The notes under the pieces: generated by a model
What the model saw: the letters and a program-made list of their open reading frames with translations, nothing else
Databases searched by the model: none
Told to the model about the DNA's origin: nothing
Made by a program: the position numbers and the translations under genes
Origin: an uncultured bacterium
Lineage (GTDB): Bacteria; Muiribacteriota; Ozemobacteria; Ozemobacterales; Ozemobacteraceae
DNA: 44,678 nucleotides
NCBI GenBank assembly: GCA_964474705.1
Contig: CAYYUI010000040.1
Span: forward strand, 1 to 44,678
Reading direction: 5' to 3'
Part shown: positions 11,934 to 44,678 of the stretch, piece after piece
Layout: every line of letters begins with the position of its first letter
Position numbering within the stretch: the first letter of the stretch is position 1

Positions 11934-12132
11934 GGCCTGTTTTCCGGTTGGTCATATTAATCTCAACGCAAAAAGACTAGCACCGGGTCAGAAAAAAGAC
12001 AATATCGCGACAAGACCATGCTGCGGTGAAAATTTGCAGCGTCAACGACTTTAGATTATATTGGTGTTAGCTTTTTTAAAGATTGGTTTGTATTCAAGCC
12101 TGACTGGCAGGTCTTGCAACCGGAGGAAGTTC

Positions 12133-12366
12133 ATGAAAACAATAGATCTGAATCTTTCGGATTATACCCTGGCGCAAAAGCTGCAACTGTTGGAAACCCT
12201 GTGGGATGACATTGCCAGAGAGGGCAGTTTCGATTCGCCAGAATGGCACGGCGCTGTTTTAAAAGACCGTCAGAAGGCCTATGATGCAAACAAACTGACA
12301 TCCTCAGATTGGCAACAGGCCAAGAAGCGTATCAAAAAAATCTCGCATGCGAGTAGAAATCCTTAA
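12133..12366 (+). CDS. putative addiction-module antitoxin component (RelB/Phd-like family)
   Basis: MKTIDLNLSDYTLAQKLQLLETLWDDIA is typical of the TIGR02574-type small antitoxin; GGAGGAAG RBS. Confidence 0.55.
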   Translation: MKTIDLNLSDYTLAQKLQLLETLWDDIAREGSFDSPEWHGAVLKDRQKAYDANKLTSSDWQQAKKRIKKISHASRNP

Positions 12367-12499
12367 TACCGCAGAAAGCGACCTTGAGGAAGGCTTGAAA
12401 GCGTTGATACCAGTTTACGGATTAACAACAAGCTCATGGAAAGCGCGTAAGCGTGAATTTAAACGCCTCTTGAAAAAGCTCGCTTCTGCCTTCCCCTGA
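12347..12499 (+). pseudogene. truncated RelE/ParE-like toxin remnant (50 aa)
   Basis: Overlaps the antitoxin 3' end in the usual TA arrangement; only the N-terminal part (MRVEILNTAESDLEEGLKAL) resembles ParE/RelE; about half the normal length. Confidence 0.3.
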
Positions 12500-12513
12500 C
12501 TTAAAGAAATTAT

Positions 12514-15375
12514 TCACGCAGTGAGTCGCTGGTATAAATCAAACAAGAAGGCGACGCGGTCGGCTTCGGTTTTGAATGTGGTTTTGCCGTAGGCGGCATC
12601 CACTGCTTTGTCGAGATTCTGATGTGCCTTTACCAGTTCAGGGGGCATTGATCTAGGATCGTAGAGGTCAGCAAGAGAACTGTCTGGGTATTTGGTGCGG
12701 GCATCTAATACTTGCTGGGCCGCCAATTCAACTGCTTTCTGTTGTTTTTTGTCTGGGTTTAAAGGCCACGGGAATGTATTGTAGGTCAGCTTGGCCGAAT
12801 ATTGATAGTCGCTTTTCAATCTACCAGAAGTTGTGCGCATCCATGCCATGTGCATTGTGCTGGTAATTATGCCAAAATCATAAAGACTTGCACCGGGAAT
12901 GGTTTGCAACTTGTCGCCTGCAATGTGGGTATGTGGCAGATAGCCGATTGGGATGTAATTTCGGTTTTCTGATGAAACCCTTGGCAATGCGAGATAGTAG
13001 CCTGATTGAGGTTGTCTGATTTCAGCAAACAATGCTGGTTTATTAGAATCTCTTTGCGTGGCTTCTTTAGTGCTCGCACTTCTCATGGCTTTGACAGCTT
13101 CAACACGCTTCATCACATGATGCATTTCTCTTAACTTGTTTGGCGAGCAACCTACGAGCCAAAGGCAAAATCGTGGAATGTTGTTGATGAATTCATCACC
13201 CATTGAAAAAGGTCTTACAAGCTCTTCAGCGGCGGGTTCAATTTTTAATAACTCATTTTTTTCGTCTTCTGATAGCAAAAGATTGCCGCCATCGGTAGGC
13301 TTGTTGCCGTTTACCATTGCTGGAACTTTGCATAATGCCTGCGACCGTGCCAGAACAACAGCGTTGGGTGCATCGAGCAGGTATGGGTTAATGTTCTTTG
13401 CGATTGTGCTGTGTGGTTCGCCTTTAATGTCGTCATAGACAAATAGGGTCTTTTCTGGGGTTTCGGCCAGACCGAAGCCGATAATAACAACATGCACGGC
13501 CGCCTTTCCGCGTGCTTCGCTGCTCCAGCTGAATGTTCGGTGGGCAAAATAAATTTTCAGTCCTGCTTTTATAAGTGGCGGCCATAATATAGAGACCTGT
13601 TCACCCTGGGTGATGCTGTTTGTCGAGACGAATGCGACGCGTGTGTTTTTGTTTTTTACCAGGTAATCTGTGGCCAGATAATACCAGGCAGCGACAAAAT
13701 CAAGGCTTCTGTATAACTTCACTGGTTCGAGGCTGGCAGCAGCGTTGAATACCTTGTGTAAGTCGGTGTCCTGCTGGTCGGAACGGTAATTTTTGCCGAT
13801 GAACGGCGGATTTCCCATGATGTAGTCAAAACTTACCCGTTCTGATTCGGCTGGGGCCTGGCCTTTGTGCACTTTAAACGACTTTGTTTGAACATTGATA
13901 GTATTGTAAGTTTGCTTTGGATCATTTACCAGATAGATATTTGTATGTTGAGCTGTTGCATCAATGGTGCTGATGGGAATGAGAAGTTCTTGCCAGTCGA
14001 TCTGCAGGGCGTTGGCGCATACGATGGTGCCGCCGCCGCGCAATGGAATACGTGCAAAATAAAGGCCGAACTCTTCAGAAACCTGCATGTTCATCTGGTG
14101 GTCAACCAGCCACAGTGCAACCTGGGCAATCTGAGCCGGGAATTCTTCAATTTCGATGCCGTAGAACTGGTCAACATCAAGCTTTATCAGTGTCTGCACG
14201 TCCAGAATCTGTTGCTGTTTGTCATACATGGCGCGAAGAATTTCTAGTTCCAGCAGGCGCAATTCACGGTAGGCAATGACCAGAAAGTTGCCACAACCGC
14301 AAGCCGGGTCGAGAAATTTCAACGAGCGCAGCTTTTGATGAAACTCAGCCAGCTTGTTTTTATTACCCTTAAATTTGGTGAATTCTTCCCAGAGAACATC
14401 GAGAAACAGCGGCTTGATCAGCTTCAAAATGTTCCTTTCACTGGTATAGTGGGCACCAAGATTTCGTCTGGCGGTTTTATCCATGATTGACTGAAACAAC
14501 GAACCGAAGATAGCCGGTGAAATACGGCTCCAGTCGAGAGCGCAACAGTCGAGCAGAGTCTGGCGCATTTTGCTGTCAAAACTGGCGTTCGGCAGGATTT
14601 CCTCAAACAGCTTACCATTAACGTATGGAAAGGCGGCCAGCTGTTCATCGAGATTTCTGAGACGCCTGCTTTCTGGCGTGTTCAAAACCTGAAAAAGTGC
14701 GGCAATATGGTAAGCCAGATCTGAGCCGTCTTCATTCGTGCGTTCTTCAACATAGTTCTGAAAGGTCTGGCGCTCAAAAATGCCGGTGTCTTCGGCAAAT
14801 AGACAGAAAAGAAGGCGCACCAGATACAGCTCAAGCTGATGACCGTCGTAGCCGATTTCCTTGAGCTGGTCATGCAATCTCCCCATGTTTTCGGCGGCCC
14901 TGATATTAACCGGGTCTTCTTCGCGGATCTTGTGTTTCTGGTATCCGGCCACAAAGCCGAAAAGCCTGATGTTTTTGTGCAGGTCTCTGAGGTCGAAGTC
15001 GTGCTGCTCGTTTTCTTCCAGGTCATAGAGGCGGAACCTGGCAAAGTCAGAAACCAGAATGTATTTGGGCAGCTCGCGCTCCAGTATGCCGGGGAAATAA
15101 TCGAGAGCTTGAGTGTAGGCTCGATCAAGGTTTTTGCCGCGCGATTTGTGCTCGACCAGCAGAATTCCTTTCCAGAACAGGTCAATGAACCCTTGCTTTT
15201 CTCCGAGTTTCTTTACTGGTTCTTCAAATGACGCAACCCGCTTGCGGGTAATACCAAAGATATTGAAGAAGCCATCCCAGAATGATTTGGCTTCGGCATC
15301 TTCTGATGTTTCGGTTTCCCACTCTTTTGAAAAGGCTATGGCGCGGCTTTTTATCTCGTTCCAGCTCAAAGGCAT
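12514..15375 (-). CDS. MmeI-family Type IIL restriction-modification enzyme (fused endonuclease, N6-adenine methyltransferase and target-recognition domain)
   Basis: N-terminus MPLSWNEIKSRAIAFSKEWE; DLFW..EHKSRG nuclease motif; SAM motif I FLDPACGCGNFL; motif IV GNPPF; C-terminus LKAHQNLDKAVD..AFLFDLYQRLT, all characteristic of MmeI-like enzymes. Confidence 0.85.
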   Translation of the reverse strand: MPLSWNEIKSRAIAFSKEWETETSEDAEAKSFWDGFFNIFGITRKRVASFEEPVKKLGEKQGFIDLFWKGILLVEHKSRGKNLDRAYTQALDYFPGILERELPKYILVSDFARFRLYDLEENEQHDFDLRDLHKNIRLFGFVAGYQKHKIREEDPVNIRAAENMGRLHDQLKEIGYDGHQLELYLVRLLFCLFAEDTGIFERQTFQNYVEERTNEDGSDLAYHIAALFQVLNTPESRRLRNLDEQLAAFPYVNGKLFEEILPNASFDSKMRQTLLDCCALDWSRISPAIFGSLFQSIMDKTARRNLGAHYTSERNILKLIKPLFLDVLWEEFTKFKGNKNKLAEFHQKLRSLKFLDPACGCGNFLVIAYRELRLLELEILRAMYDKQQQILDVQTLIKLDVDQFYGIEIEEFPAQIAQVALWLVDHQMNMQVSEEFGLYFARIPLRGGGTIVCANALQIDWQELLIPISTIDATAQHTNIYLVNDPKQTYNTINVQTKSFKVHKGQAPAESERVSFDYIMGNPPFIGKNYRSDQQDTDLHKVFNAAASLEPVKLYRSLDFVAAWYYLATDYLVKNKNTRVAFVSTNSITQGEQVSILWPPLIKAGLKIYFAHRTFSWSSEARGKAAVHVVIIGFGLAETPEKTLFVYDDIKGEPHSTIAKNINPYLLDAPNAVVLARSQALCKVPAMVNGNKPTDGGNLLLSEDEKNELLKIEPAAEELVRPFSMGDEFINNIPRFCLWLVGCSPNKLREMHHVMKRVEAVKAMRSASTKEATQRDSNKPALFAEIRQPQSGYYLALPRVSSENRNYIPIGYLPHTHIAGDKLQTIPGASLYDFGIITSTMHMAWMRTTSGRLKSDYQYSAKLTYNTFPWPLNPDKKQQKAVELAAQQVLDARTKYPDSSLADLYDPRSMPPELVKAHQNLDKAVDAAYGKTTFKTEADRVAFLFDLYQRLTA

Positions 15376-15745
15376 GATTGTTACTCTCTGTTCAGGTTGA
15401 TTTTTGTTATGACTCAGGCTTTCGTCCGGCAAAGTCCATTAAATCACAATCAGATCTATCATGCAATTTTTGCTCAGATCGAACAACTCTACGAGTGAAG
15501 CATGGTCGATTCGCCTGATTTGGAAGCTTATAGTGGCCGCCTGGTAAAGGTTAAAAAGCGGCAGCAAAGTCTTCCTGATATAAATTCTGCGAACCATTGT
15601 TTGCTCAAATTAGGAACGCATTGCATACCATTTTGAAGACGGCTTGCTGTTTTAATTCACTGAATCTCGGCCTTTCCAGTTTGCTTCTTTCAAAGATTGT
15701 CGTCGGGTGGTTGAATTGTAATATTGCAGGTGATATCATAAATAT

Positions 15746-15991
15746 ATGGGAACATTTGAAAAACTCCTGGAAAAAATGCGCAGTAATCCTCGTGGAGATT
15801 GGACTATGGAAAATCTTCTGACGATTGCCAGGCGGATGAACATTGAGGTTCGCAACAGTGACGGCAGTCACCATGTTTTTTCTTTTCCAGGGCTGGATGA
15901 GGATGTAACGGTACCGTATAAGCGGCCGATCAAACCGGTTTATATCAAAAAGTTTCTTGCGCTGGTTGATGCGGTTAAGGAGGTTGTATGA
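15746..15991 (+). CDS. hicA: HicA-family mRNA interferase toxin
   Basis: GSHHVF ... VTVPYKRPIKPVYIKKFL motif of HicA/YcfA; ATGA overlap with the downstream gene. Confidence 0.7.
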   Translation: MGTFEKLLEKMRSNPRGDWTMENLLTIARRMNIEVRNSDGSHHVFSFPGLDEDVTVPYKRPIKPVYIKKFLALVDAVKEVV

Positions 15992-16380
15992 AGAAGGTTG
16001 CAAAAGTTAAGCCGCCCTTTGCTTTTGATGAATACACAAGGGTTCTGAGCCGTATTGCGGAAGATGACGGCGGCGGGTTTCTGATTACTTTTCCGGATCT
16101 GCCGGGCTGCATGTCTGATGGAACCACTGAGGAAGAGGCCCTCGAGAATGGAAGAGATGCTTTTGTTTCGTGGGTTTCAGCGCGGATGGATCAGGGAAAG
16201 AATATTCCGGAACCAAAAGCGAAGCCGATGGACTATGTTGCGGCAGATGTTTCCGGACGATTTCTGGCGCGGATGCCGAAGTATATTCATGCTCGTCTGG
16301 TTAAGAGGGCAGAACGTGAGGGTGTGAGCGTGAATGCCCTGGTTCTGTCTTTTATCGCTTCCGGGCTTGGGCAGAGCTGA
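15988..16380 (+). CDS. hicB: HicB-family antitoxin (RNase-H-like fold N-domain plus RHH DNA-binding C-domain)
   Basis: LITFPDLPGCMSDGTTEEEALENGRDA is HicB/UPF0150-like; the C-terminus is a ribbon-helix-helix. Confidence 0.75.
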   Translation: MKKVAKVKPPFAFDEYTRVLSRIAEDDGGGFLITFPDLPGCMSDGTTEEEALENGRDAFVSWVSARMDQGKNIPEPKAKPMDYVAADVSGRFLARMPKYIHARLVKRAEREGVSVNALVLSFIASGLGQS

Positions 16381-16434
16381 AACTCTCATTAACCAATAAT
16401 TTCCGGCACGCTACGTAGCGCGGCGCAAAAGATT

Positions 16435-16719
16435 TCAGGCAACCTTGCTTAGAGTCAGGTTGAATCCTGATCTCATGGCCAGAATAATAAGCATTTCCAG
16501 ACTGAATTTTTCCCATTTTCCACGAACCAGATCAGAAATTCTCGACTGGCTAACCTGCAGAATTTCGGCAGCTTCAGCCTGAGTAAGACCCTGATCACTG
16601 ATCCACTTTCTTACCTCTGCCATCAAATCAGCCCGCATTCTAAGAATTGCAGCATCTTCACTCGAATAGCCGAGGTCGAGAAAAACATTTCCAGATGATT
16701 CATGAATTTCGTTTTTCAT
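16435..16719 (-). CDS. higA: HigA-like XRE-family HTH antitoxin
   Basis: HTH LTQAEAAEILQVSQSRISDLVRG; its ATG overlaps the TAA stop of the upstream toxin reading frame by 1 nt. Confidence 0.75.
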   Translation of the reverse strand: MKNEIHESSGNVFLDLGYSSEDAAILRMRADLMAEVRKWISDQGLTQAEAAEILQVSQSRISDLVRGKWEKFSLEMLIILAMRSGFNLTLSKVA

Positions 16720-17041
16720 TATTTTACCCCAATGAGAGCCAGTCTTTTGCGAGCAATTTCGATATCCTGCAGAGAGGTTTTCTGTGTTTTTTTCTGAAAA
16801 GCGTGCAAAACATAAACAGCATCCAAAACTTTGGCTACGTAGATAACCCGCCATTCCCCAAGGATATGAATCCGGATTTCATTTACTCCAGAACCGATTG
16901 TCTTCAGGGTTTCCAGTCGCCTGGCTCAAACCCATTTTGAATAGCTCGAAGCTCGAAACCGGCAGCACGCCGCGCTTCCTCCGGGAAATCGCGCAATTCA
17001 TTCAGACTCGGCCCAACAAATCTTAATGGCTTGGTAGTCAC
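16719..17041 (-). pseudogene. higB: HigB/Gp49-like (RelE/ParE superfamily, COG4679-type) toxin, disrupted by a frameshift
   Basis: Two adjacent frames give KPLRFVGPSLNELRDFPEEARRAAGFELRAIQNGFEPGDWKP and LKTIGSGVNEIRIHILGEWRVIYVA..VYVLHAFQKKTQKT, which join if one C is added to the CCC run (plus-strand GGG at 16907-16909); putative GTG start at 17041. Confidence 0.6.
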
Positions 17042-34850: not shown

Positions 34851-35017
34851 ACAAATTCCATGATTCAAGGATGTATCTGATCTGCGACTTGTGTTTGTGC
34901 CGGTCGCCAGGAGCAAATCTGAATCAATAGACAACCCGATTTCGTGGTATATTTGCGCGGCGGAAGATACTTACCTGTAATTGGTTTTACATGACACTTA
35001 GTATGGGGGAACTGCAG

Positions 35018-36193
35018 ATGGTCGGAAAAAAAATAGCGCTATTGCTGCTGCTGGTTCTGCCGGCAATTTTGCTTGTCAATCACGTTTCTGGCAACCATGA
35101 AGTGTCAGAGCTTGTGATGTCGGGTAACTTCGAAATTGACGAAGTACTTCTGTCTTTCAGGATTCCCGGCCAATTACTGGAAAGAACTGTCGCCGAAGGC
35201 GAGAGTGTCGCTTCAGGCGCGCTGATTGCAAAACTCGATCCGGCCGAGCATTTGATAGCGGTTCAGAGAGCTTCGGCAACCTACGAAGCTGATCTTGCAG
35301 CTCTGCGGGAGCTCGAAAACGGTCCCCGGCCTGAAGAGATCGAGCAGGCGCGGGCGCAGCTTCAGGTGGCTCAGGCGATGCAGGATCAGCTTGAAGCCGG
35401 TTCGCGGCCCCAGGAAAAGAAATCGGCACAGGCACTTCTTCACCAGGCAGAAGCCCAGGTCGAAAAAAATCGGGCCGCTCTCGATGAAGCGACAAAAGAT
35501 GCACGTCGGGTCACAAAGCTCTTTGCAGAAAATGCGGTAAGTGAAAAGGATTATCTGGCTGCCAGAACGCGAGAAGAGGCTGCTAAAGCCATTTATAATG
35601 AAGCGAAGGCCAAGGTGGAAGCCGCAAGGCAGAGTTTGAGCATTGCCGATGAAGGGCCCCGCCGCGAAGAAATTGCCAGGGCGCGTGCGGCCGTGCGCGC
35701 TGCCCAGGCTGCCCTCGACCTGCTGTTGGCCGGCACCCGCCGCGAGAGAATTGAACGGGAACAGGCCAGGGTGGCAGCTTCCCTGGCTGCTCTTCAACAG
35801 GCCTGTCTGCAGCTCGAATATACCAGACTCTTTTCACCGCTGGCCGGAGTAGTTCTGACCAAGGCGGCCGAGGCCGGCGAATTCGTGAGACAGGGGCAGG
35901 GAATCGTTACGGTCGGTAATCTCGATCACATTTTTCTGCGGGTATATGTAAGTGAAACGAGTTTCGGCAGAGTGAAGCACGGCCAGACGGTTGCCGTAAA
36001 CGTCGATGGCTTTCCGAAAGAGACTTTTACCGGCCGGGTTGTTTTCATCAGTCAGGAAGCGGAATTTACTCCCAAGAGCGTTCAGACGCATGAAGAACGC
36101 GTAAAGCTCGTTTACCGCATCAAGATAGCGGTTGACAACCCGGATCACAAATTCAAGCCCGGTATGCCCGCCGATGCAATCCTCAAACTGTAA
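35018..36193 (+). CDS. HlyD-family membrane-fusion (periplasmic adaptor) protein
   Basis: N-terminal TM anchor, long coiled-coil segments, C-terminal beta-barrel motifs; GGGGGA RBS. Confidence 0.8.
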   Translation: MVGKKIALLLLLVLPAILLVNHVSGNHEVSELVMSGNFEIDEVLLSFRIPGQLLERTVAEGESVASGALIAKLDPAEHLIAVQRASATYEADLAALRELENGPRPEEIEQARAQLQVAQAMQDQLEAGSRPQEKKSAQALLHQAEAQVEKNRAALDEATKDARRVTKLFAENAVSEKDYLAARTREEAAKAIYNEAKAKVEAARQSLSIADEGPRREEIARARAAVRAAQAALDLLLAGTRRERIEREQARVAASLAALQQACLQLEYTRLFSPLAGVVLTKAAEAGEFVRQGQGIVTVGNLDHIFLRVYVSETSFGRVKHGQTVAVNVDGFPKETFTGRVVFISQEAEFTPKSVQTHEERVKLVYRIKIAVDNPDHKFKPGMPADAILKL

Positions 36194-38108
36194 GTATGTA
36201 GCGGAGGCTGATAACCTCTCTCGAAATTTTGCTGCAACCCGCGCCGTTGCTTCAGTATCGCTCAAGGTCGGTGCGGGTGAAATCTTTGGTATTGTCGGGC
36301 CTGATGGCGCCGGCAAATCGACTTTGCTGCGTATGCTTGCGACAATTCTGCAGCCTGACCAGGGAGATGCCAGAGTCTGTGGTTTCAGCGCCATCATTGA
36401 TGCAGAGGCCGTCAAGAATCGTATTGCCTACATGAGTCAGAGATTTGCCCTTTATTCCGATCTGACCGTACATGAAAACATCAGATTCTATGCTGATTTA
36501 TACAATGTTCCCGAGGCCGGCCTCGAAGAACGCATCGACGAGCTTCTCCATTTCAGCGGTATGCATCCTTTCAAAAAACGTCTTGCCGGCCGGCTTTCCG
36601 GAGGCATGAAGCAGAAACTGCAGCTGATCTGTGCTCTGATTCACACGCCTGAACTGTTGATACTCGATGAGCCGACCAATGGTGTAGACCCGGTCAGCCG
36701 CAGAGATTTCTGGCGGATGCTGCAGAATCTGGCCGGCCGCGGGGCAGCGATAATAGTTTCCACTTCTTATCTTGATGAAGCCGAAAGATGTCATCGTCTT
36801 GCATTGATGCACGAGGGCGGATTTTTTACTACCGGCCGTCTCGATGAAATTATTGCCAGGGCTGATTTTGAAGTGGCGGTCTGGAGAAGCGACCTTGCAC
36901 CACGCGTGTTTGCTGAGCTTCGCCGCCGGGTAGGCGATCATGGCGTCAGACTGTTCGGCAACAGCATCAGAATAAGAAACAGAACGGCGAGCGGCGGGAT
37001 TCGGGAGCTGGTCGATGAAATTGCACGCCTCGAAGGTTGCGCCGGGGCATGGGAGCCTGACGAAAAACCGGGCCTTGAAGATGTTTTCGTCAGGTATCTC
37101 GAAACTGCTTCTGCGGGTGAAATAGCGGGCTCAAAAAACCATTTTGCTTCAAACCAAGGCCTGCGTGAAATCTGCCCGGTGCAGATCAAAGGTTTGCGCC
37201 GGGTTTTTGGCGATTTTACCGCGGTCGATTCGATAAGTCTCGATGTGAAGCAGGGGGAAATATTTGGTTTTCTTGGGCCTAACGGTGCGGGAAAGAGCAC
37301 GACCATACGTATGCTTTGCGGTTTATTGCTGCCTACTTCCGGCGAGGGGACGGTAGCGGGTTTTGATCTGAGGCGCGATGCAGAAAGAATCAAACGGTGT
37401 ATCGGTTATATGAGTCAAAAATTTTCTCTCTATACCGAACTTACGGTTGCTGAAAATATCAGATTTTACGGCGGAATTTACGGGCTGGGTGGTGACAGGC
37501 TTGAGGCAAGGCTATTATGGGCGCTCGACATGGCCGGATTGCATGGCTTTGCCTGCCGTCAGGTCAAGGTTCTCAGCCTTGGCTTCAGGCAGAGACTGGC
37601 TCTGGCCTGCTCACTTCTTCACGAACCTTCGATAGTTTTTCTTGACGAGCCGACCAGCGGGGTCGACCCGCTCACCCGCCGGCAGTTCTGGGGCACGATC
37701 AGAGACCTTGCCCATGCCGGAGTTACGGTATTTGTAACCACCCATTACATGGAAGAAGCCGAATACTGCGACCGGATTGCTTTTATCAACAACGGTCGAA
37801 TCATGGCCTGCGGTTCTCCTGAAAAACTCAAGAAGGAAATCGTCAGACACCGGATTTATCGCAGCGATAAGAGGGTTTCAGCGGCAGAACTCGACGGTAT
37901 GAAGCAATTGCCTGGTATCGTCGACGCTTATGTTCACGGAACTGGCCTTCATTTTGCCATTGAACGGCAGGAGAGCGTTCCCGTGCTGTGCGAACTGATC
38001 GGGTGCGATTTCAGCGAGCTGCAGGAAGTAGCTGCGAGCATGGAAGACGTTTTCGTTCAGCTTGCTTCTGTAAGTGGCCATGCTGCCAGGGAGGAATACA
38101 GCGGATGA
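36171..38108 (+). CDS. ABC transporter ATP-binding protein with two tandem ATPase domains (RbbA/YhiH-like)
   Basis: Two Walker A sites (GPDGAGKST, GPNGAGKST), two LSGG-type signatures, two Walker B sites; start uncertain (overlaps HlyD 3' end). Confidence 0.8.
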   Translation, partial: PMQSSNCKYVAEADNLSRNFAATRAVASVSLKVGAGEIFGIVGPDGAGKSTLLRMLATILQPDQGDARVCGFSAIIDAEAVKNRIAYMSQRFALYSDLTVHENIRFYADLYNVPEAGLEERIDELLHFSGMHPFKKRLAGRLSGGMKQKLQLICALIHTPELLILDEPTNGVDPVSRRDFWRMLQNLAGRGAAIIVSTSYLDEAERCHRLALMHEGGFFTTGRLDEIIARADFEVAVWRSDLAPRVFAELRRRVGDHGVRLFGNSIRIRNRTASGGIRELVDEIARLEGCAGAWEPDEKPGLEDVFVRYLETASAGEIAGSKNHFASNQGLREICPVQIKGLRRVFGDFTAVDSISLDVKQGEIFGFLGPNGAGKSTTIRMLCGLLLPTSGEGTVAGFDLRRDAERIKRCIGYMSQKFSLYTELTVAENIRFYGGIYGLGGDRLEARLLWALDMAGLHGFACRQVKVLSLGFRQRLALACSLLHEPSIVFLDEPTSGVDPLTRRQFWGTIRDLAHAGVTVFVTTHYMEEAEYCDRIAFINNGRIMACGSPEKLKKEIVRHRIYRSDKRVSAAELDGMKQLPGIVDAYVHGTGLHFAIERQESVPVLCELIGCDFSELQEVAASMEDVFVQLASVSGHAAREEYSG

Positions 38109-39244
38109 AATGGCGTCGTTTCAGAGCCGTTGCCTTGAAGGAATGCCTGCATGTCCTGCGTGACTGGCGCAGTCTGGCTATTTCGCTCGCTATCCCGCTG
38201 CTGCTGCTTCTGCTGTTCGGTTATGCCCTCAACATGGATCTCAATGATGTGCCGGTAATCCTGCACGATCAGGCCAGAAACGTACAAAGCCGTGATCTGG
38301 CAGAACTTTTCAGTGCTTCACCATATTTCAATATCGTTGCCAGAACCGATGAATACCGGGAAATCGAACGGGCGCTCGGCTCCGGCAAGGCTCTGGTGGC
38401 CCTGGTTATTCCGCCGGAATTTGGGCGTGAGACTATCGGTGGCGGGGAAGCTGTTGTTCAGGTGCTGGCTGATGGCAGCGATGCCAATACCGCCAGTTTC
38501 GCGCTAAACTATGCCCGGGCAATCGGTATGATTGCCGGCGTTTCGCTGCAGACAAGGTTGGCCGATCTTCAGGCCCCGGCAGGGATGGTTAAAATCGATC
38601 TGCACAGCCGGGTCTGGTTCAACCAGGACATGCGCAGCCGCAATGTTATTGTTCCCGGGGTCATCGCTATCGTTATGGTCATCATCGCTTCGATGCTGAC
38701 ATCCGTAACCGTAGCCCGGGAATGGGAGACAGGAACAATGGAACAGCTGATCAGCACGCCGGTCACTGTTCCAGAGATGATTTTGGGCAAAGTGGTTCCA
38801 TATTTTGCGGTCGGATTTATCGATCTGCTGATCGCTTTTGTCGTCGGCAGGTGGTGGTTCGGGGTGCCGTTCCGAGGAAATTCAGCCCTGTTGTTTATTT
38901 TGAGCGGTCTTTTTCTTTCAGGATCACTTTTTTTCGGTCTTTTTCTCAGCATCAGACTCAAAAGGCAGGTGCTTGCCAATCAGGCGGCTCTGATGTCGGG
39001 CTATTTGCCGACTCTGTTTCTCAGCGGCTTTGTTTTTGCGGTTCCGAACATGCCATGGTTTCTGCAGAAGATCAGTTATGTCGTTCCGGCGAAGTATTTC
39101 ATCAGCATTCTTCGAGGTCTGTATCTCAAAGGAGTCGGCCTCGAAGTTCTCTGGTTCAATGCATTGATTCTGGTAATCTATGCCGGTCTCGTTCTGTTTC
39201 TGGCTCATCGCAATCTTGAGCTGAGGCTTGACACCGATGCTTAA
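38105..39244 (+). CDS. ABC-2 type transporter permease
   Basis: ATGA overlap with the ATPase gene; six predicted TM helices typical of ABC-2. Confidence 0.8.
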   Translation: MKWRRFRAVALKECLHVLRDWRSLAISLAIPLLLLLLFGYALNMDLNDVPVILHDQARNVQSRDLAELFSASPYFNIVARTDEYREIERALGSGKALVALVIPPEFGRETIGGGEAVVQVLADGSDANTASFALNYARAIGMIAGVSLQTRLADLQAPAGMVKIDLHSRVWFNQDMRSRNVIVPGVIAIVMVIIASMLTSVTVAREWETGTMEQLISTPVTVPEMILGKVVPYFAVGFIDLLIAFVVGRWWFGVPFRGNSALLFILSGLFLSGSLFFGLFLSIRLKRQVLANQAALMSGYLPTLFLSGFVFAVPNMPWFLQKISYVVPAKYFISILRGLYLKGVGLEVLWFNALILVIYAGLVLFLAHRNLELRLDTDA

Positions 39245-40328
39245 TCGCTTCAAACAGCTCTTCGTTAAAGAATTTCTCGAATTGTTTCGCGATCCGCGCA
39301 TGCGGGTTCTAACCTTCATTTTTCCGGCGATTCAGATTGTAATCATGGCGCAGGCTTTTGTACTCGAGGTTAGAAACGTCGAACTCGCCGTGGTCGATCA
39401 TGACAGTTCGGTGCTGTCGCGCGAATTGGTTGCTGCTTTCACTGCCAGCGGCCATTTTATCAGCCGCCCTCAGGAAAACATCGCGATTGCCGGCAAAATG
39501 CTTGCGGCTGAAGAAGTCAGGGCCGTCATCGAGATTCCGGCCGGCTTTGGCGGTAATGTGCGTCGCCCCGGCGGCGGCAGTGTCGCCCTGTTTACCGATG
39601 GTACCGGCAGCAATGATGCCGGGCTGATTCAGAGTTACGCTGCGACGATTGTTTCTGAATTTCAGCAGCGTTATAACGGTCGCAGAACTGATATTCCCGT
39701 AACCAGAGCCTGGTTCAACGACAATCTCGAGAGCCGTTTTTACTATGTTCCCGGTCTCATCGGCATTCAGCTCGTAGTGATCAGCTTTCTGCTCGCTTCG
39801 ATCGCGATCGTTAAAGAAAAAGAGATCGGCACTATCGAGCAGTTGATGGTTACACCCATCACCGTCGTCGAATTCATTCTGGGAAAAACCCTGCCTTACA
39901 TGGCGATTGGCTATATTGGTGCCACCATCATGCTGGTTGCCGCATTCGGTTTCTATGGCATAGCGGTGAAGGGCAGCTGGCTGCTTCTCTATCTCAGCAT
40001 CGGCATTTTTCTCGCGGGAAATCTCGGCTGCGCCCTTATTATCAGCGTTGTTTCAACCACTCAGCAGCAGGCGCTGCTGACGTCGTTTTTTTTCATGCTG
40101 CCGCTGGTGATGCTTTCCGGGCTGCTTTTCCCCATTAGAAATATGCCGGTCCCGGTGCAGTATCTGACGATGATCAACCCGCTGCGCTGGTTTTTTCAGA
40201 TGCTCAGCGGCATTATCTGCAAGGGAAGCGGCATTGGCGAGCTGATGACCCCTATCGTTGCCCAGATCATTATAGCCGTCATCTTTATTTCTCTGGCGAT
40301 AGCAAGGTTTAAAAAGGCTGTTGACTGA
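39237..40328 (+). CDS. ABC-2 type transporter permease (paralog)
   Basis: Start overlaps the upstream stop; ABC-2 TM architecture. Confidence 0.8.
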   Translation: MLNRFKQLFVKEFLELFRDPRMRVLTFIFPAIQIVIMAQAFVLEVRNVELAVVDHDSSVLSRELVAAFTASGHFISRPQENIAIAGKMLAAEEVRAVIEIPAGFGGNVRRPGGGSVALFTDGTGSNDAGLIQSYAATIVSEFQQRYNGRRTDIPVTRAWFNDNLESRFYYVPGLIGIQLVVISFLLASIAIVKEKEIGTIEQLMVTPITVVEFILGKTLPYMAIGYIGATIMLVAAFGFYGIAVKGSWLLLYLSIGIFLAGNLGCALIISVVSTTQQQALLTSFFFMLPLVMLSGLLFPIRNMPVPVQYLTMINPLRWFFQMLSGIICKGSGIGELMTPIVAQIIIAVIFISLAIARFKKAVD

Positions 40329-40418
40329 AGACCTGGCATAAATGCGACCGGATTTTCCGATCGTGATATAATGCTGCAGAGAAATTGCATCGAGATCTGT
40401 GACGAGTTGAGACAAACC

Positions 40419-41273
40419 ATGACTGAAAGCCGGCCCGCGGCCGACCAGAAAAAACTTGAGACTCTTGGAGGGCTCATTTCGGGAATAACCCATGAGATCA
40501 ACACTCCAATGCATTATCTTGAAAACAATCTGACTTTTCTCAAAGTCGCCTTCAAAGATCTGATCAGGCTTTCAGCCGAATACCAGAAGCTCTGTGAAAG
40601 AGTCAGAAGCGGCGATGTGCCTGATGAGACCGACTGGAAAGCCCTTCAGGAAATTGAAACGGAGACCGACCCTGAATATCTGCGCACCGAGATTCAGCAG
40701 GCATTGCAGCAGTCACATGAAGGCATCGGTATGGTGTCGCGCCTGGTTCTCGCTCTTAAAGACTTTTCGCATCCATCACTGCATGAATTTGCCCTGACTG
40801 ATGTCAACAAATGTATCGATACGGTCTGCACCATTTCCAGGCATGAATGGAAGAAGGTTGCCGATATTCATTTTCAGCTTGGCAGCGATCTGCCATACCT
40901 TTATGCTTCACGCGATGAACTGCACCAGGTGTTGCTGAACCTGATCGTGAATTCAGCCCATGCAATAGGGGAAAAGATTGCGGCGAAGGTGTATGATCGA
41001 GGCAAAATCAGCATTGCAACGCGACCGGTCGATGACAGAATCGAAATCGTGATTGCCGACGACGGCCCCGGAATTGCACCGGAGAACATGCCGAAACTTT
41101 TTGCGCCTCATTTTACCACCAAAGAGGCCGGAAAAGGCACAGGTCTTGGTTTGCTCCTCGTCAGACGCATCGTTGAAGAAGCCCATGGCGGCAGGATAAG
41201 TGTTGAATCCGGCCCTTCTGGCACTGCGTTCACGATACTGCTGCCGCATCGTTGCAGCGAAAAAGCGGTTTGA
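40419..41273 (+). CDS. soluble histidine kinase (HisKA plus HATPase_c, no sensor or TM domain)
   Basis: H-box GITHEINTPM; N, G1 and G2 (GTGLGL) boxes. Confidence 0.8.
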   Translation: MTESRPAADQKKLETLGGLISGITHEINTPMHYLENNLTFLKVAFKDLIRLSAEYQKLCERVRSGDVPDETDWKALQEIETETDPEYLRTEIQQALQQSHEGIGMVSRLVLALKDFSHPSLHEFALTDVNKCIDTVCTISRHEWKKVADIHFQLGSDLPYLYASRDELHQVLLNLIVNSAHAIGEKIAAKVYDRGKISIATRPVDDRIEIVIADDGPGIAPENMPKLFAPHFTTKEAGKGTGLGLLLVRRIVEEAHGGRISVESGPSGTAFTILLPHRCSEKAV

Positions 41274-41292
41274 TAAAATCTGGAGGGGATTC

Positions 41293-42525
41293 ATGAAAAC
41301 ATTCAGTCTGTTGTTTGCCGACCCTGACAAAAATGTTCATGACGGGCATCGTCGAATGATCAAGGCTTTGAAGCCTGAATGGTCATTGATGTTTGCTTCA
41401 ACTGCCCGGGAAGCCATGTCCAAAGTTGCCATACTGCATCCGGCAGTCATCATCTCAGAATTGAACATGGAACTGGAAGACGGTTCTGATCTTCTTCAGA
41501 CTATCCAGAAGGCCTACCCCGAAATCGTGCGTATCGTTCTTTCGAGTGAACCAGATGGAGAGTCTGAAGTCATTCTGCGGGCCACACAGTCTGCACACAG
41601 GTTTCTCGCCAAACCATGTAAAGGTGAGATACTTGTTGAGCAGATCGAGAAAGCCGGAAGCCTGAGAAGGCTTCTCAACAGCAGGGAACTTATTACTATA
41701 ATCGGCGGGATTCCATATCTGCCGAGTTTGCCGGCGATCTATCACAAGCTGGTAGAAGCTATTGCCTCACCATTGACGCCATTGAGTGAAATCGGCGACA
41801 TAATCGCCGAGGACGTTTCAATGACCGGCAGAGTGCTGCATCTCGTGAATTCGGCATTTTTCGGGTTGCCGCGCAAAGTATCGAACCCCCAGACCGCTGT
41901 GGTGATGCTGGGTATAAATGTCATCAAATCGCTGGTCTGCTATGTTAAACTGTTTTTTGCCGCTCCTGACGTGGTGATGCCAGGGTTGTCGCTCGATGAG
42001 ATGTGGTCGCACAGCTCGATGGTCGCACGTCTCAGCAAGGATATAGCCGCAGCGTGCAATGCCCCGGCATCGGTTCAGGAAGAAGCGTTTCTGGCAGGCA
42101 TGCTGCATGATGTCGGCAAACTCCTGCTGCTCGACCATCCGAGCTATTACCGCAAAGTGTTTGCTTCCAGTTCAGGTAAAGGCGAAAAGGCTTTCTCAGA
42201 CGCTGAATATAATGCTTTTGGAACCTCGCATGCCGAAATTGGTGCTTATCTCCTGGGTTTATGGGGTCTATCGGATCAGGTCGTCGAAGCGGTAGCCTGC
42301 CATCACCGGCCGGCGCAGCTGCATCTGGAGAATTCGCCGGTGTTGCTGGCCACGCATCTTGCCAACGCTCTGTTGTGTCAGGCAGCAGGTCAGCCGTTTA
42401 CGATCGACAGTGGCGTGATGAACGATGCGGCGGTAAAAAGAAGTCTGCATGACTGGAAAAAGCGTGCTGAAACAATTTTCAGGGAAAGTAGCGATGAAGC
42501 CAAAAATACTGCTGGTAGACGATGA
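41293..42525 (+). CDS. pseudo-receiver (REC-like) plus HDOD domain signalling protein
   Basis: REC-like fold with Glu at the phospho-acceptor position (IISELNM) and altered acidic pocket; the HDOD/HD-like region contains an HD dyad (LHDVGK), checked by eye only; GGAGGGG RBS. Confidence 0.75.
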   Translation: MKTFSLLFADPDKNVHDGHRRMIKALKPEWSLMFASTAREAMSKVAILHPAVIISELNMELEDGSDLLQTIQKAYPEIVRIVLSSEPDGESEVILRATQSAHRFLAKPCKGEILVEQIEKAGSLRRLLNSRELITIIGGIPYLPSLPAIYHKLVEAIASPLTPLSEIGDIIAEDVSMTGRVLHLVNSAFFGLPRKVSNPQTAVVMLGINVIKSLVCYVKLFFAAPDVVMPGLSLDEMWSHSSMVARLSKDIAAACNAPASVQEEAFLAGMLHDVGKLLLLDHPSYYRKVFASSSGKGEKAFSDAEYNAFGTSHAEIGAYLLGLWGLSDQVVEAVACHHRPAQLHLENSPVLLATHLANALLCQAAGQPFTIDSGVMNDAAVKRSLHDWKKRAETIFRESSDEAKNTAGRR

Positions 42526-43639
42526 ACCGAATATAATACATTCTTACAGTCGCGGACTGCGCAAAGAATGGGATCTTGTAACTGCTCTCAGCGGTGAAGA
42601 AGGCCTGACTGCCATAAGGGAACAGGGACCGTTTCCGGTTATCGTTTCCGATTTCAACATGCCATGTATGAACGGCATAACTTTTCTTGCCAGAACCATT
42701 GAATCGTCGCCGGAAAGCGTTCGGGTGATGCTGACCGGCGAGGGAGATTTCCAGATTGCCACCCAGGCGGTCAACGAAGGCAATATTTTTCGTTTTATCA
42801 CCAAACCCTGCCCGCTCGACCGACTGCAGAAAATTCTCAGCGATTCATTGCGACAATATAATCTGCAGCAGCTTGAAAAGGAGAGCCATAGACAGGAACT
42901 TGCCATCGCCGGCAAGATTCAGCAGACGCTCCTGATCGAGAGGATTCCAGCCGGATTGAAATTGAATGTCGCGGCGGTTACAGTGCCTTCAAATGAAGCT
43001 GATGGTGATTTTATAGATTTTTTCAGATTTGACGAGAATCGCCTCGATGTTGTCATTGCTGATGTCATGGGAAAGGGTCTGCATGCCGCCATGGTTGGTG
43101 CCGGTGCCAAGAACCGATTGTCCAGGGTTCTCTGGCAGCTTTCGATGCAGAAGGAGCCCAGGGCTCTCGAACCGGTTTCGGTGATGGAAGAATTCAAACT
43201 CGCTATGGATAAAGGGCTTGAAGAGGTTCAGTGTTTCATTACCATGATTTACGCCAGATTTGATCTTCAGGCCGGCGTCATGACTTTTATCGATGCCGGG
43301 CATATGCCGGTGCTGCATTATACAAAAGGCGAAAATGTCTGGCGTGAAGTAAAAGGTTCGGGCGGTCCGGTCGGGCTTGCTTTCAAAAAACCTTATGAGC
43401 AGAAGGATATTCATTTTTCGAGTGGCGATCTCTTTTTGTTCTATTCTGACGGTCTTTGGGAGGGTCGTAATTCTGAAAAGCAGACCTTTGGAAGTGTGGC
43501 AATGAAAAAATGTGCTGAAAAGCTGGTGAATGCCACGGCTGAAGATTTTGTCGCCGGTATGCTGGCTGATTATCGCAGTTTTGTCGTGCCGGGGCCATTT
43601 TTTGACGATCTGACCCTTATTGTGGTCAGAATTCCGTGA
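42494..43639 (+). CDS. response regulator with PP2C/SpoIIE-type Ser/Thr phosphatase output (RsbU-like)
   Basis: Canonical REC (LLVDDEP, VSDFNMP, TKP); C-terminal PP2C motifs (DVMGKGLHAA, FYSDGL). Confidence 0.85.
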   Translation: MKPKILLVDDEPNIIHSYSRGLRKEWDLVTALSGEEGLTAIREQGPFPVIVSDFNMPCMNGITFLARTIESSPESVRVMLTGEGDFQIATQAVNEGNIFRFITKPCPLDRLQKILSDSLRQYNLQQLEKESHRQELAIAGKIQQTLLIERIPAGLKLNVAAVTVPSNEADGDFIDFFRFDENRLDVVIADVMGKGLHAAMVGAGAKNRLSRVLWQLSMQKEPRALEPVSVMEEFKLAMDKGLEEVQCFITMIYARFDLQAGVMTFIDAGHMPVLHYTKGENVWREVKGSGGPVGLAFKKPYEQKDIHFSSGDLFLFYSDGLWEGRNSEKQTFGSVAMKKCAEKLVNATAEDFVAGMLADYRSFVVPGPFFDDLTLIVVRIP

Positions 43640-43783
43640 CGCACTTCGGCTGATATGCCGGGCCGTCGAACAAACTCTATTTTGTTTTTGCAGGATCCAA
43701 TAATGCCGATTTGATTTCTTGCTCTTCCTGTATTGGGCAATTTGGTGTATAAATGACTATTAATCCATTGTCGGGAGTGAACC

Positions 43784-44678
43784 ATGAATCTCGTCTATCT
43801 TTCTCCACATTATCCTGCTCATTATTCACAGTTTGTCGAATCGCTGGCCCGTTACGGGGTCAAGGTTTTCGGCATCTCGGATCTTCCTGATGAAGCCCTG
43901 GATCCGAGAGTCAGACAGTCTCTCAGCGGTCACTACCGGGTGGATCGCCTCGAAGATCATCAGCAGGTAATCGAAGCGGCAGGTTTTTTCAAAGAGCATC
44001 TCGGCGAGATCGACCGCGTTGAATCGCATCTTGAGCCATGGATCGAACTTGAAGCCATGGTCAGAGACACCTATAACGTCACTGGTCCGAAGTCTGAAAG
44101 TCTGCAGTTCATCAAACGCAAATCGTTGATGAAGGATGTTTTCAGCCGCGCCGGAGTACCAGCGGCCCGGGGCATAGTGGTCAAAGATATGAAGCAGTGT
44201 CTTGATTTCATTCATGGTCATTACCCGGTGTTCATCAAGCCTGATATCGGTGTCGGTGCTGCCGATACCTATACTATCCGCAGTGAAGACGATCTCAAGC
44301 ATTTTTTCACGATCAAACAGGGCTATGACTATTTCATGGAAGAGTTTGTCGATGGTGATCTGCAGTCTTTTGACGGCCTTACCGACAAAGATAACAATAT
44401 AGTTTTCTGCACTTCGCATGTTTTCAGTAACGATATTCACAAGGTCGTCAAGAATAACGAAAACGTCTGGTATTATTCACAGATCGAGATTCCAGCAGAA
44501 ATCGAAAAATACGGCCGTGCCATCGTCAAAGCCGCCGACGTTCGCGAAAAGTTTTTCCACATTGAATTTTTCAAGCTGAAGAACGGCAAATACCAGGCGC
44601 TTGAGATCAACATGCGCCCACCGGGAGGCCTGACCACCCACATGTTCAATTTCGCCTGCGATATCGATGTTTATGACT
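43784..44678 (+). CDS. ATP-grasp domain enzyme (carboxylate-amine ligase type), 3'-truncated by window end
   Basis: Open frame to the window end with ATP-grasp motifs (FIKPDIGVGAADTY, EEFVDGD, LEINMRPPGG); the provided minus-strand ORF 43826-44440 is its shadow. Confidence 0.6.
   Translation, partial: MNLVYLSPHYPAHYSQFVESLARYGVKVFGISDLPDEALDPRVRQSLSGHYRVDRLEDHQQVIEAAGFFKEHLGEIDRVESHLEPWIELEAMVRDTYNVTGPKSESLQFIKRKSLMKDVFSRAGVPAARGIVVKDMKQCLDFIHGHYPVFIKPDIGVGAADTYTIRSEDDLKHFFTIKQGYDYFMEEFVDGDLQSFDGLTDKDNNIVFCTSHVFSNDIHKVVKNNENVWYYSQIEIPAEIEKYGRAIVKAADVREKFFHIEFFKLKNGKYQALEINMRPPGGLTTHMFNFACDIDVYD

Follow-up and report, generated by a model that had tools for sequence, protein, structure and literature searches.

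A Riflebacteria signaling operon with a core-only histidine kinase, a Glu-substituted pseudo-receiver-HDOD protein and a REC-PP2C phosphatase

Results

We analyzed contig CAYYUI010000040.1 of an uncultured bacterium of the Ozemobacteraceae (assembly GCA_964474705.1), a stretch of 44,678 nucleotides (nt) that we call the window. The window appears to be an entire metagenomic contig, since 44,678 bp is also the longest contig listed for the cluster of the identical kinase protein. Its last 4.3 kb carry four genes, all on the forward strand, where the original prediction, made from the letters alone, had placed them: a histidine kinase (gene 1), a receiver-like domain fused to an HDOD domain (gene 2), a receiver fused to a PP2C/SpoIIE phosphatase (gene 3, hereafter REC-PP2C) and an ATP-grasp enzyme (gene 4). 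Genes 1-3 are a genuine three-gene signaling operon of an uncultured Riflebacteria relative. We give about an even chance to a reading in which this operon is a self-contained system of one kinase and two regulators, whose HDOD branch would have been disconnected from phosphotransfer in the course of evolution and would work without phosphorylation, and whose kinase would serve REC-PP2C alone. This is an unusual combination of individually known parts, not a new kind of system. The triad itself, the fact that a candidate phylum has conserved it, and the stepwise loss of an active site beside a sensor-less kinase appear to be undescribed.

The domain assignments in these genes have E-values of 1e-9 to 1e-50, well beyond chance. 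A search of NCBIfam assigned none of genes 1-4 to a named equivalog, and the closest homologues are annotated as Candidatus Rifleibacterium, Riflebacteria or Ozemobacteraceae. Gene 2 begins 19 nt after the stop of gene 1, behind a GGAGG ribosome-binding site, and gene 3 overlaps gene 2 by exactly 32 nt; the spacings had been foreseen as a gap of about 20 nt and an overlap of 32 nt. We compared this layout with about 85 related loci. They include 80 loci with a receiver-HDOD gene (REC-HDOD) drawn from a scan of species-representative genomes of many phyla, onto which the window proteins were mapped by tblastn. Genes 1-3 look co-transcribed, because their spacing is tight or overlapping and because the same order and coupling recur in every related locus of Riflebacteria and Ozemobacteraceae with a contig long enough to show it. 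Scans for consensus promoters and terminators gave counts no higher than in shuffled sequence and made no call in the intergenic gaps, and an Rfam search of the window returned no matches.

A pseudo-receiver with an invariant Glu

Pfam recognizes two domains in gene 2, Response_reg (37.9 bits, cutoff 30.2) and HDOD (170.3 bits, cutoff 22.9). The protein consists of a pseudo-receiver (residues 1-128), the HDOD domain (residues 143-340) and a C-terminal helix, and in its AlphaFold2 model, which has a predicted local distance difference test (pLDDT) score of 85.6, the receiver part adopts the (beta-alpha)5 topology. We aligned CheY, genes 2 and 3 and the best 120 homologues with MAFFT. CheY D12, D13, D57 and K109 correspond to D10, P11, E56 and K107 of gene 2; the counterpart of CheY T87 is, by eye, S85, the MAFFT column being off by one position. 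The receiver is not canonical, since the acceptor Asp is replaced by Glu56 and the DD pair by D-P. The second acid being gone, gene 2 lacks the Mg2+-binding acidic pair, and the consensus of its clade at this place is D-[PS]-[DE]. With a fold recognized by PF00072 and Glu56 at the acceptor position, it is an Asp-less receiver (ALR). An error of register at the acceptor site was excluded by the CheY alignment and by the comparison with the best 120 homologues and 80 loci. The Glu pseudo-receiver fused to HDOD, read at first from the motifs AVIISELNM and ADPD, had been placed in the correct register.

The Glu form is conserved in orthologues, a check that the original prediction had called for. 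Its clade comprises 47 of the best 120 homologues, all Riflebacteria loci L001-L010 and Ca. Ozemobacter sibiricus, and extends down to ~46% identity, with the motif F-A/V-D-P/S-D/E ... S/T/A-E-L/I. Across the 42 full-length sequences of the clade, the entropy of Glu56 is 0. The best-conserved region of the domain is beta4-alpha4-beta5, at 0.24-0.70 bits against 1.14 for the domain as a whole; helix alpha-1 is average (1.13 bits) and carries a conserved, clade-specific G-H-R-R motif. The invariant Glu and the conserved beta4-alpha4-beta5 face point to purifying selection on a fixed signaling conformation, and the pseudo-receiver is under constraint rather than decaying. It is plausible that Glu56 is phosphomimetic, because the Ser/Thr and Lys positions are retained: gene 2 keeps the Ser and the Lys by which a receiver normally holds the phosphoryl group.

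Where the acceptor Asp of a receiver is replaced, the substitute is most often Glu, which can mimic phosphorylation (Bourret et al. 2025, PMC12632262). About 4% of receivers have no acceptor Asp, and these are strongly associated with HDOD outputs (Maule et al. 2015, PMC4395418; PMC12548384). Like the class known as ALR or pseudo-receivers (PsR), gene 2 keeps the receiver fold, has Glu in place of Asp, has lost one acid of the DD pair and retains the T/S and K positions. Unlike this class, its gene still lies between the gene of a kinase of the cognate family and that of a canonical sibling regulator. To our knowledge, no HDOD pseudo-receiver has been studied experimentally.

The closest relative of gene 2 in the PDB is 3hc1, an HDOD protein of G. 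sulfurreducens (E = 3e-24 by sequence), which is also the top fold match; the top Foldseek matches of the model further include 3m1t, 3mem, MmoQ and SadB. The HDOD domain retains H240, H272-D273, H313 and H337-H338, aligned to the 3hc1 motifs W-x-H, LHDVG, TSH and HH. These ligand residues are mostly invariant in the alignment of the gene 2 family, with D273 and H338 at no less than 90%. In 3hc1, two iron ions are held by five His and one Asp (PMC12075610), and the HDOD domain of gene 2 keeps the same complete set of predicted di-metal ligands.

Few studies of HDOD domains have been published, and their results are mixed. The REC-HDOD protein DVU0330, whose HD site is intact, showed only weak hydrolysis of bis-p-nitrophenyl phosphate (bis-pNPP) and no cyclic di-GMP (c-di-GMP) activity (PMC4114195). 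The degenerate HDOD domain of SadB is reported to act as a ligand-independent adaptor of proteolysis (PMC12075610); in earlier work, SadB was reported to bind c-di-GMP (PMC6543031). Gene 2 shares the HDOD fold with the canonical REC-HDOD proteins (D. vulgaris DVU0330, X. campestris GsmR and M. capsulatus MmoQ), with 3hc1 and with SadB (9qzk). As in DVU0330 and 3hc1, its HD-type metal site is complete, and a kinase gene also adjoins that of DVU0330 (PMC4114195, operon figure legend). It differs from DVU0330-type regulators in that these are treated as ordinary phosphorylatable regulators, and from the SadB adaptor in that the latter has lost three of the His ligands.

A kinase reduced to its catalytic core

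Gene 1 had been described as a soluble kinase without an obvious input domain, and both its structure model and the length of its orthologues agree with this. Pfam identifies HATPase_c at 89.3 bits and HisKA at 16.8 bits, the latter under its cutoff of 26.9 bits because the whole family has an insertion of ~40 residues in the hairpin. The H-box of gene 1, ITHEINTP, aligns with that of ZraS (9jfj), and its His is residue 41 of the 300-residue form or residue 25 of the 284-residue form. Boxes H, N, G1, F and G2 are intact, and they do not vary among 44 orthologues. The invariant positions include H25, E26, N28 and P30 around the predicted phospho-accepting His, and N174/N178, G216 of the DDGPG (G1) box, F228/F232 and G238-G244 in the ATPase domain. 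By its H-box and its ATPase domain gene 1 is a Class I (HisKA-type) kinase, predicted to autophosphorylate and to transfer the phosphoryl group.

The AlphaFold2 model of gene 1 (pLDDT 86.9) has helices at residues 5-63, 70-83 and 85-117, followed by the ATPase domain. The first is the long helix that bears the His, the second a short extra helix and the third the return helix of the DHp hairpin. No sensor domain and no membrane segment is present in the model. Relative to ZraS, ~40 extra residues stand in the hairpin, between the H-box helix and the second helix. The idea that they hide an input domain was ruled out: the extension is family-wide, folds as the extra helix, and cannot be a private input domain because members of the family that have sensors carry the same insertion. 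In Riflebacteria, 58 clusters of kinases are 285-330 residues long, and most begin near the position of the second ATG of gene 1, a start that leaves ~24 residues ahead of the phospho-His. Only the catalytic core of the kinase remains, with every catalytic box intact.

A canonical receiver on a PP2C phosphatase

The assignment of gene 3 as a canonical receiver fused to a PP2C/SpoIIE phosphatase held up. Its receiver (Response_reg, 57.6 bits; residues 5-115) is connected by a helical linker to a SpoIIE/PP2C Ser/Thr phosphatase domain (117.8 bits; residues 181-380), and the CheY alignment finds D9, D10, D53 and the Lys in place. The acceptor Asp is kept in 17 of 18 aligned REC-PP2C orthologues, the exception having Asn, and also in the REC-PP2C proteins of loci L083, L085 and L086. 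The PP2C motifs GD..D, DV..G, GH, DG and DD are conserved among the 18 orthologues. Gene 3 has a complete receiver active site and a complete predicted PP2C metal site.

The exceptional orthologue belongs to Riflebacteria UR.bin127 (locus L011, 1925-4302), where the acceptor of REC-PP2C is Asn (VVVSNFRMP). The REC-HDOD protein of this locus keeps its Asp, with DG in the place of DD, and there is no kinase gene upstream. Compared with the Glu clade, it is the opposite branch that has degenerated.

The best full-length match of gene 3 in the PDB is RssB, a REC-PP2C protein of P. aeruginosa (3eq2/3f7a, E = 4e-20). Gene 3 is not an equivalog of this protein, since it scores 87.5 bits against the NCBIfam model RssB_Pseudo (NF045505), whose cutoff is 700. 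The dimer of 3eq2/3f7a has a crossing-linker architecture that was proposed to activate PPM phosphatases, and a common architecture of dimer and linker would activate those with receiver N-terminal domains (PMC12143880). Like RssB and RsbY of Bacillus cereus, gene 3 combines a receiver, a helical linker and a PPM/SpoIIE domain with intact metal motifs. Unlike in those systems, neither a STAS antagonist (RssC or RsbV) nor an anti-sigma kinase is encoded beside it. Our literature search turned up no paper in which HDOD is named with PP2C, SpoIIE or RsbU.

Receivers of the gene 3 type score 83-101 bits against a profile of 45 canonical REC-HDOD receivers. This makes the receivers of REC-PP2C and REC-HDOD close paralogues, which one kinase could plausibly serve. 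Such paralogues might also pair with each other. The Glu pseudo-receiver-HDOD protein would then bind REC-PP2C through the alpha4-beta5-alpha5 face of the receivers and tune the activation of the phosphatase, much as HnoD restrains HnoB or the Asp-less WhiI pairs with BldM. We think this quite unlikely. Besides the paralogy, what speaks for it is that beta4-alpha4-beta5 is the most conserved surface of the pseudo-receiver, that the two genes overlap in the window and, in nearly all relatives, abut or share a few nt, and that PPM phosphatases of the REC-PP2C type are controlled by dimerization of their N-terminal domains (PMC12143880). There is also a precedent in HnoD and HnoB, where a degenerate HD-type regulator inhibits its sibling by direct contact (PMC6335343). 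Yet the conserved face could equally touch the HDOD domain of the same protein or form homodimers, and a basal Riflebacteria locus (L012) has REC-HDOD with no PP2C neighbor.

Stepwise change of the HDOD branch

A kinase orthologue lies at most 200 nt upstream of REC-HDOD in 55 of the 74 informative loci, which come from many phyla, and these orthologues have 35-74% identity to gene 1 over residues 27-292. Kinase and REC-HDOD are hence an old cognate gene pair and ancestral partners. The kinase subfamily paired with REC-HDOD (80 loci, L003-L082) is marked by the extended hairpin and by the HEINTP H-box, and the phyla of the paired loci include Bacillota, Planctomycetota, Desulfobacterota, Nitrospirota, Acidobacteriota and Ignavibacteria. 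Our search of the literature found no description of this widespread two-gene module. Outside Riflebacteria, the open reading frames (ORFs) of the kinase span 226-1163 residues (median 712), related kinase clusters carry PAS or REC domains, and the receiver of the HDOD protein is canonical (VDDEP ... SDMRMP).

The triad of short kinase, REC-HDOD and REC-PP2C is conserved across Riflebacteria and Ozemobacteraceae. The kinase is 290-310 residues long in the nine Riflebacteria loci with measurable ORFs, and REC-PP2C stands directly downstream in all Riflebacteria contigs that reach far enough (L001, L003-L007, L009, L010 and L083-L086). In these relatives the genes corresponding to genes 2 and 3 usually overlap by a few nt or abut, and gene junctions with overlaps of 4 nt are found in L083, L085 and L086. 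Eight loci of Desulfobacterales and relatives (L050, L052, L063, L066, L069, L072, L079 and L081) have a triad in which both receivers are canonical and carry Asp. In one more (L075), REC-HDOD is followed by REC-PP2C, on a contig that begins at REC-HDOD and hence does not reveal the kinase gene.

The more distant REC-HDOD homologues carry Asp at the acceptor position. The sister group of the Glu clade keeps this Asp and has already lost the second acid (VDRD ... ADL; P0047-P0053, L083), and the basal Riflebacteria locus L012 has a canonical REC-HDOD protein, a short kinase and no PP2C gene. A stepwise change can be followed within one candidate phylum, from the canonical VDDEP/SD through the intermediate VDRD/AD to the Glu form ADPD/SE. 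In the Riflebacteria loci compared, the HDOD branch alone seems to have lost its Asp. No adjacent kinase gene was detected for three other, unrelated HDOD regulators that have lost Asp, those of L030 (Glu), L037 (Glu) and L053 (Asn; ~890 nt available upstream), which fits a decoupling from phosphotransfer.

The same history could have turned a former regulator into an input, although we regard this as unlikely. The Glu pseudo-receiver would dock on the kinase hairpin, and the di-metal HDOD domain would sense redox state, a gas, a metal or a nucleotide. The HDOD protein would in this manner set the balance between kinase and phosphatase toward REC-PP2C, whether by allosteric regulation or by competing as a protein that cannot be phosphorylated. 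The kinase has no sensor of its own, and its orthologues elsewhere have PAS and other input domains. The two families descend from docking partners, and gene 2 is still translationally coupled to the kinase gene. The HDOD domain still has the site of five His and one Asp by which 3hc1 holds two iron ions, and alpha-1, the helix by which receivers usually contact the kinase, bears the clade-specific G-H-R-R. Against this, short kinases are also found beside canonical REC-HDOD proteins (L012 in Riflebacteria; also L026 and L052), so the loss of the sensor did not require a pseudo-receiver. Moreover, alpha-1 is only moderately conserved in comparison with beta4-alpha4 (1.13 bits vs 0.24-0.70), and no HDOD domain is known to be a sensor, that of SadB being an adaptor that needs no ligand (PMC12075610). 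A broader version of the idea, equally tentative, is that in Riflebacteria the former response regulator was rewired as a regulatory subunit. Its Glu-locked receiver would bind either the sensor-less kinase or the sibling REC-PP2C, and the missing input, for example redox state, a gas or a metal, would reach the system through the di-iron-type HDOD domain. If true, it would give HDOD domains a first defined role, as sensors, and pseudo-receivers a defined mechanism.

Discussion

Our results suggest how a system of one kinase and two regulators with a decoupled HDOD branch could work. The kinase would autophosphorylate on the His of its H-box and pass the phosphoryl group to Asp53 of REC-PP2C. 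The phosphorylated receiver, acting through the helical linker or a dimer, would turn on the Ser/Thr phosphatase, whose substrate would be encoded elsewhere in the genome. We model this activation on other PPM phosphatases that have N-terminal regulatory domains. REC(Glu)-HDOD would accept no phosphate; Glu56, Ser85 and Lys107 would fix its receiver in one state, probably active-like, and its metal-binding HDOD domain would be constitutive or controlled by a ligand of its own. Translational coupling would ensure that this protein is made in a fixed proportion to the other two. Having no sensor, the kinase must receive its input through a separate partner or by way of regulated expression.

Several points weigh against this reading. 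Phosphotransfer, phosphatase activity and metal binding are all deduced from sequence. A natural Glu is not invariably activating, and exceptions are on record (PMC12632262). The reading does not account for the input to the sensor-less kinase, and no STAS or anti-sigma gene lies nearby that could point to a substrate of the PP2C domain. Finally, the HDOD gene has been held between the kinase and PP2C genes, and coupled to them, over a deep divergence. This could reflect a continued physical interaction, and would favor the explanations in which the HDOD protein acts on the kinase or on its sibling regulator.

Two known systems resemble the triad. In CmrRST of Clostridioides difficile, as here, a single operon encodes a kinase, a regulator that has the normal Asp and another that naturally has Glu; the Glu regulator of CmrRST has D-x-D in place of DD and was inferred to be constitutively active (PMC12548384). 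Unlike in the triad, both CmrRST regulators are DNA binders of the OmpR type, whereas the triad has HDOD and PP2C outputs and a soluble, sensor-less kinase. The two systems are analogous, not homologous.

The second is the H-NOX/HnoK network of Shewanella and Vibrio (HnoK, HnoB, HnoC and HnoD), in which the input to HnoK comes from a separate protein. Its likeness to the triad lies in a kinase that branches to several regulators, one of which has a degenerate domain of the HD family and acts by protein contact, not catalysis (PMC6335343). This regulator, HnoD, differs from gene 2 by having a degenerate HD-GYP domain, not HDOD, and reportedly responds to kinase inputs (PMC6335343). The triad also differs from this network in that it has no gene for an H-NOX protein or another sensor, and in that its enzymatic sibling is a PP2C phosphatase instead of an EAL phosphodiesterase.

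The mechanism of pseudo-receivers and the function of HDOD domains are open questions on which the triad bears. The lineage is a compact natural experiment with three soluble proteins, in which canonical, intermediate and Glu-locked forms can be taken from related genomes, and the kinase and the canonical sibling regulator remain as internal controls. Two questions can be put to a direct test in it: does a Glu that occurs naturally truly mimic phosphorylation, and does a receiver without Asp still communicate with its former kinase?

Features of the locus and neighboring genes

The coordinates of the main features are collected in Table 1.

Table 1. Features of the signaling locus and the adjoining ATP-grasp gene, in window coordinates.
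Feature	Position	Strand	Size or basis
Gene 1, soluble core-only histidine kinase	40371..41273, or from second ATG 40419	+	300 aa or 284 aa
Predicted phospho-accepting His codon, H-box ITHEINTP	40491..40493	+	alignment with ZraS H-box
Gene 2, pseudo-receiver + HDOD, 410 aa	41293..42525	+	Pfam, AlphaFold2 model
Glu56 codon GAA at the receiver phospho-acceptor position (CheY D57)	41458..41460	+	alignment with CheY and 120 homologues
HDOD domain of gene 2	41719..42312	+	motif alignment with 3hc1
Gene 3, REC-PP2C, 381 aa	42494..43639	+	Pfam, best full-length PDB match
Asp53 codon GAT, predicted phospho-acceptor of gene 3	42650..42652	+	CheY alignment
Spacer from gene 3 to the ATP-grasp gene, 144 nt	43640..43783		comparison with contig L001
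Gene 4, ATP-grasp, 298 aa, cut by the contig end	43784..44678	+	Pfam ATP-grasp_4

The operon was originally drawn with four genes. Genes 1-3 are coupled here and in relatives, and gene 4 (ATP-grasp_4, 33.8 bits, cutoff 27), which starts 144 nt past the stop of gene 3, falls outside. An ATP-grasp gene downstream of the triad was found by tblastn only in the window and in L001, a contig of the same species, and in none of the other related loci. Its spacer varies by an indel, L001 having ~350 extra nt relative to the window, and identity is 99% over the ~130 nt that lead up to the ATP-grasp start. With no synteny and an indel in the spacer, ATP-grasp was rejected as a member of the operon. L001 is 99.5% identical to the window over 8.1 kb, and its insert (8102-8473, against 43650-43700 of the window) contains GC-rich, repeat-like motifs. 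A weak hairpin with a U-rich tract lies right after the stop of gene 3, and the fold of the spacer, with a z-score of -0.3, is not significant.

The genes downstream of the triad vary by lineage. Flanking genes that change from locus to locus include those for an extracytoplasmic function (ECF) sigma factor (L007), a PLD enzyme (L005), a hybrid kinase (L009), a radical-SAM protein (L083) and TerB (L085). In L007 (5212-7278) the ECF sigma-70 gene lies 20 nt past the PP2C gene, and three small genes without a Pfam match come after it. In Ca. Ozemobacter sibiricus (L085/L086, 10690-12179) an ECF sigma/FecR pair is found ~2 kb downstream on the opposite strand. These ECF sigma neighbors could be a lead to the pathway of the phosphatase, or could be there by chance.

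The original prediction saw in all four genes a phosphorelay without input, which would feed a partner-switching module or modify a target through the ATP-grasp ligase. We now hold this to be very improbable. A partner-switching output would have parallels in RsbY and Pseudomonas RssB, REC-PP2C proteins that act on STAS-type antagonists (in part PMC12143880), and would suit the ECF sigma gene next to the PP2C gene in L007 and the ECF sigma/FecR pair of L085 and L086. The relay itself finds no counterpart in the genes: Pfam and NCBIfam reveal neither an Hpt protein nor a hybrid kinase in genes 1-3, which makes them a system of one kinase and two regulators instead of a phosphorelay. Among the non-overlapping ORFs of at least 90 residues in the 44.7-kb contig, Pfam found no STAS, no RsbW-like (HATPase_c_2-only) and no anti-sigma gene, and none of these appeared in the sampled flanks of L005, L006, L007, L009 and L012. 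The anti-sigma or antagonist module that had been expected is thus not seen there, and what argues for a partner-switching output is solely the analogy with other REC-PP2C proteins. As for the ligase, an ATP-grasp neighbor confined to this species, behind a spacer of variable length, and absent from all other triad loci argues against a part in the system.

Upstream of the triad, an export operon encodes an HlyD-family adaptor, a double-ATPase ABC protein and two ABC-2 permeases (34991-40328, forward strand). These genes lie 43-90 nt upstream of the kinase gene, the distance to its first ATG being 43 nt, and no terminator was called in between; there may be read-through from the export operon into the triad in this strain. 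HlyD, ABC and ABC-2 genes precede the triad only in the window, L001 and L008, and the other triad loci have unrelated or divergent genes upstream. An ABC transporter acting as the sensor of the kinase, after the model of BceAB, was rejected as a conserved component of the system, since the adjacency is limited to these three contigs.

Three further regions of the window deserve mention. An ORF of 831 residues (18600-21095, forward strand) has major vault protein domains of the eukaryotic type (MVP_shoulder, 102.9 bits; Vault_3, 30.3 bits), and such a vault-protein-like gene is unusual for a Riflebacteria contig. On the reverse strand, 12514-15432 encodes a complete type IIL restriction-modification enzyme of the MmeI family, in which Pfam finds each of the five MmeI domains. 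Toxin-antitoxin-like genes stand on either side of it, Unstab_antitox (12061-12366), HicB (15988-16380) and HTH_37 (16435-16854), and the region from 12061 to 16854 looks like a small defense island. A reverse-strand gene (10854-11933) encodes an ankyrin-repeat protein of 359 residues (Ank_2, 86.6 bits), of a kind that is uncommon in bacteria.

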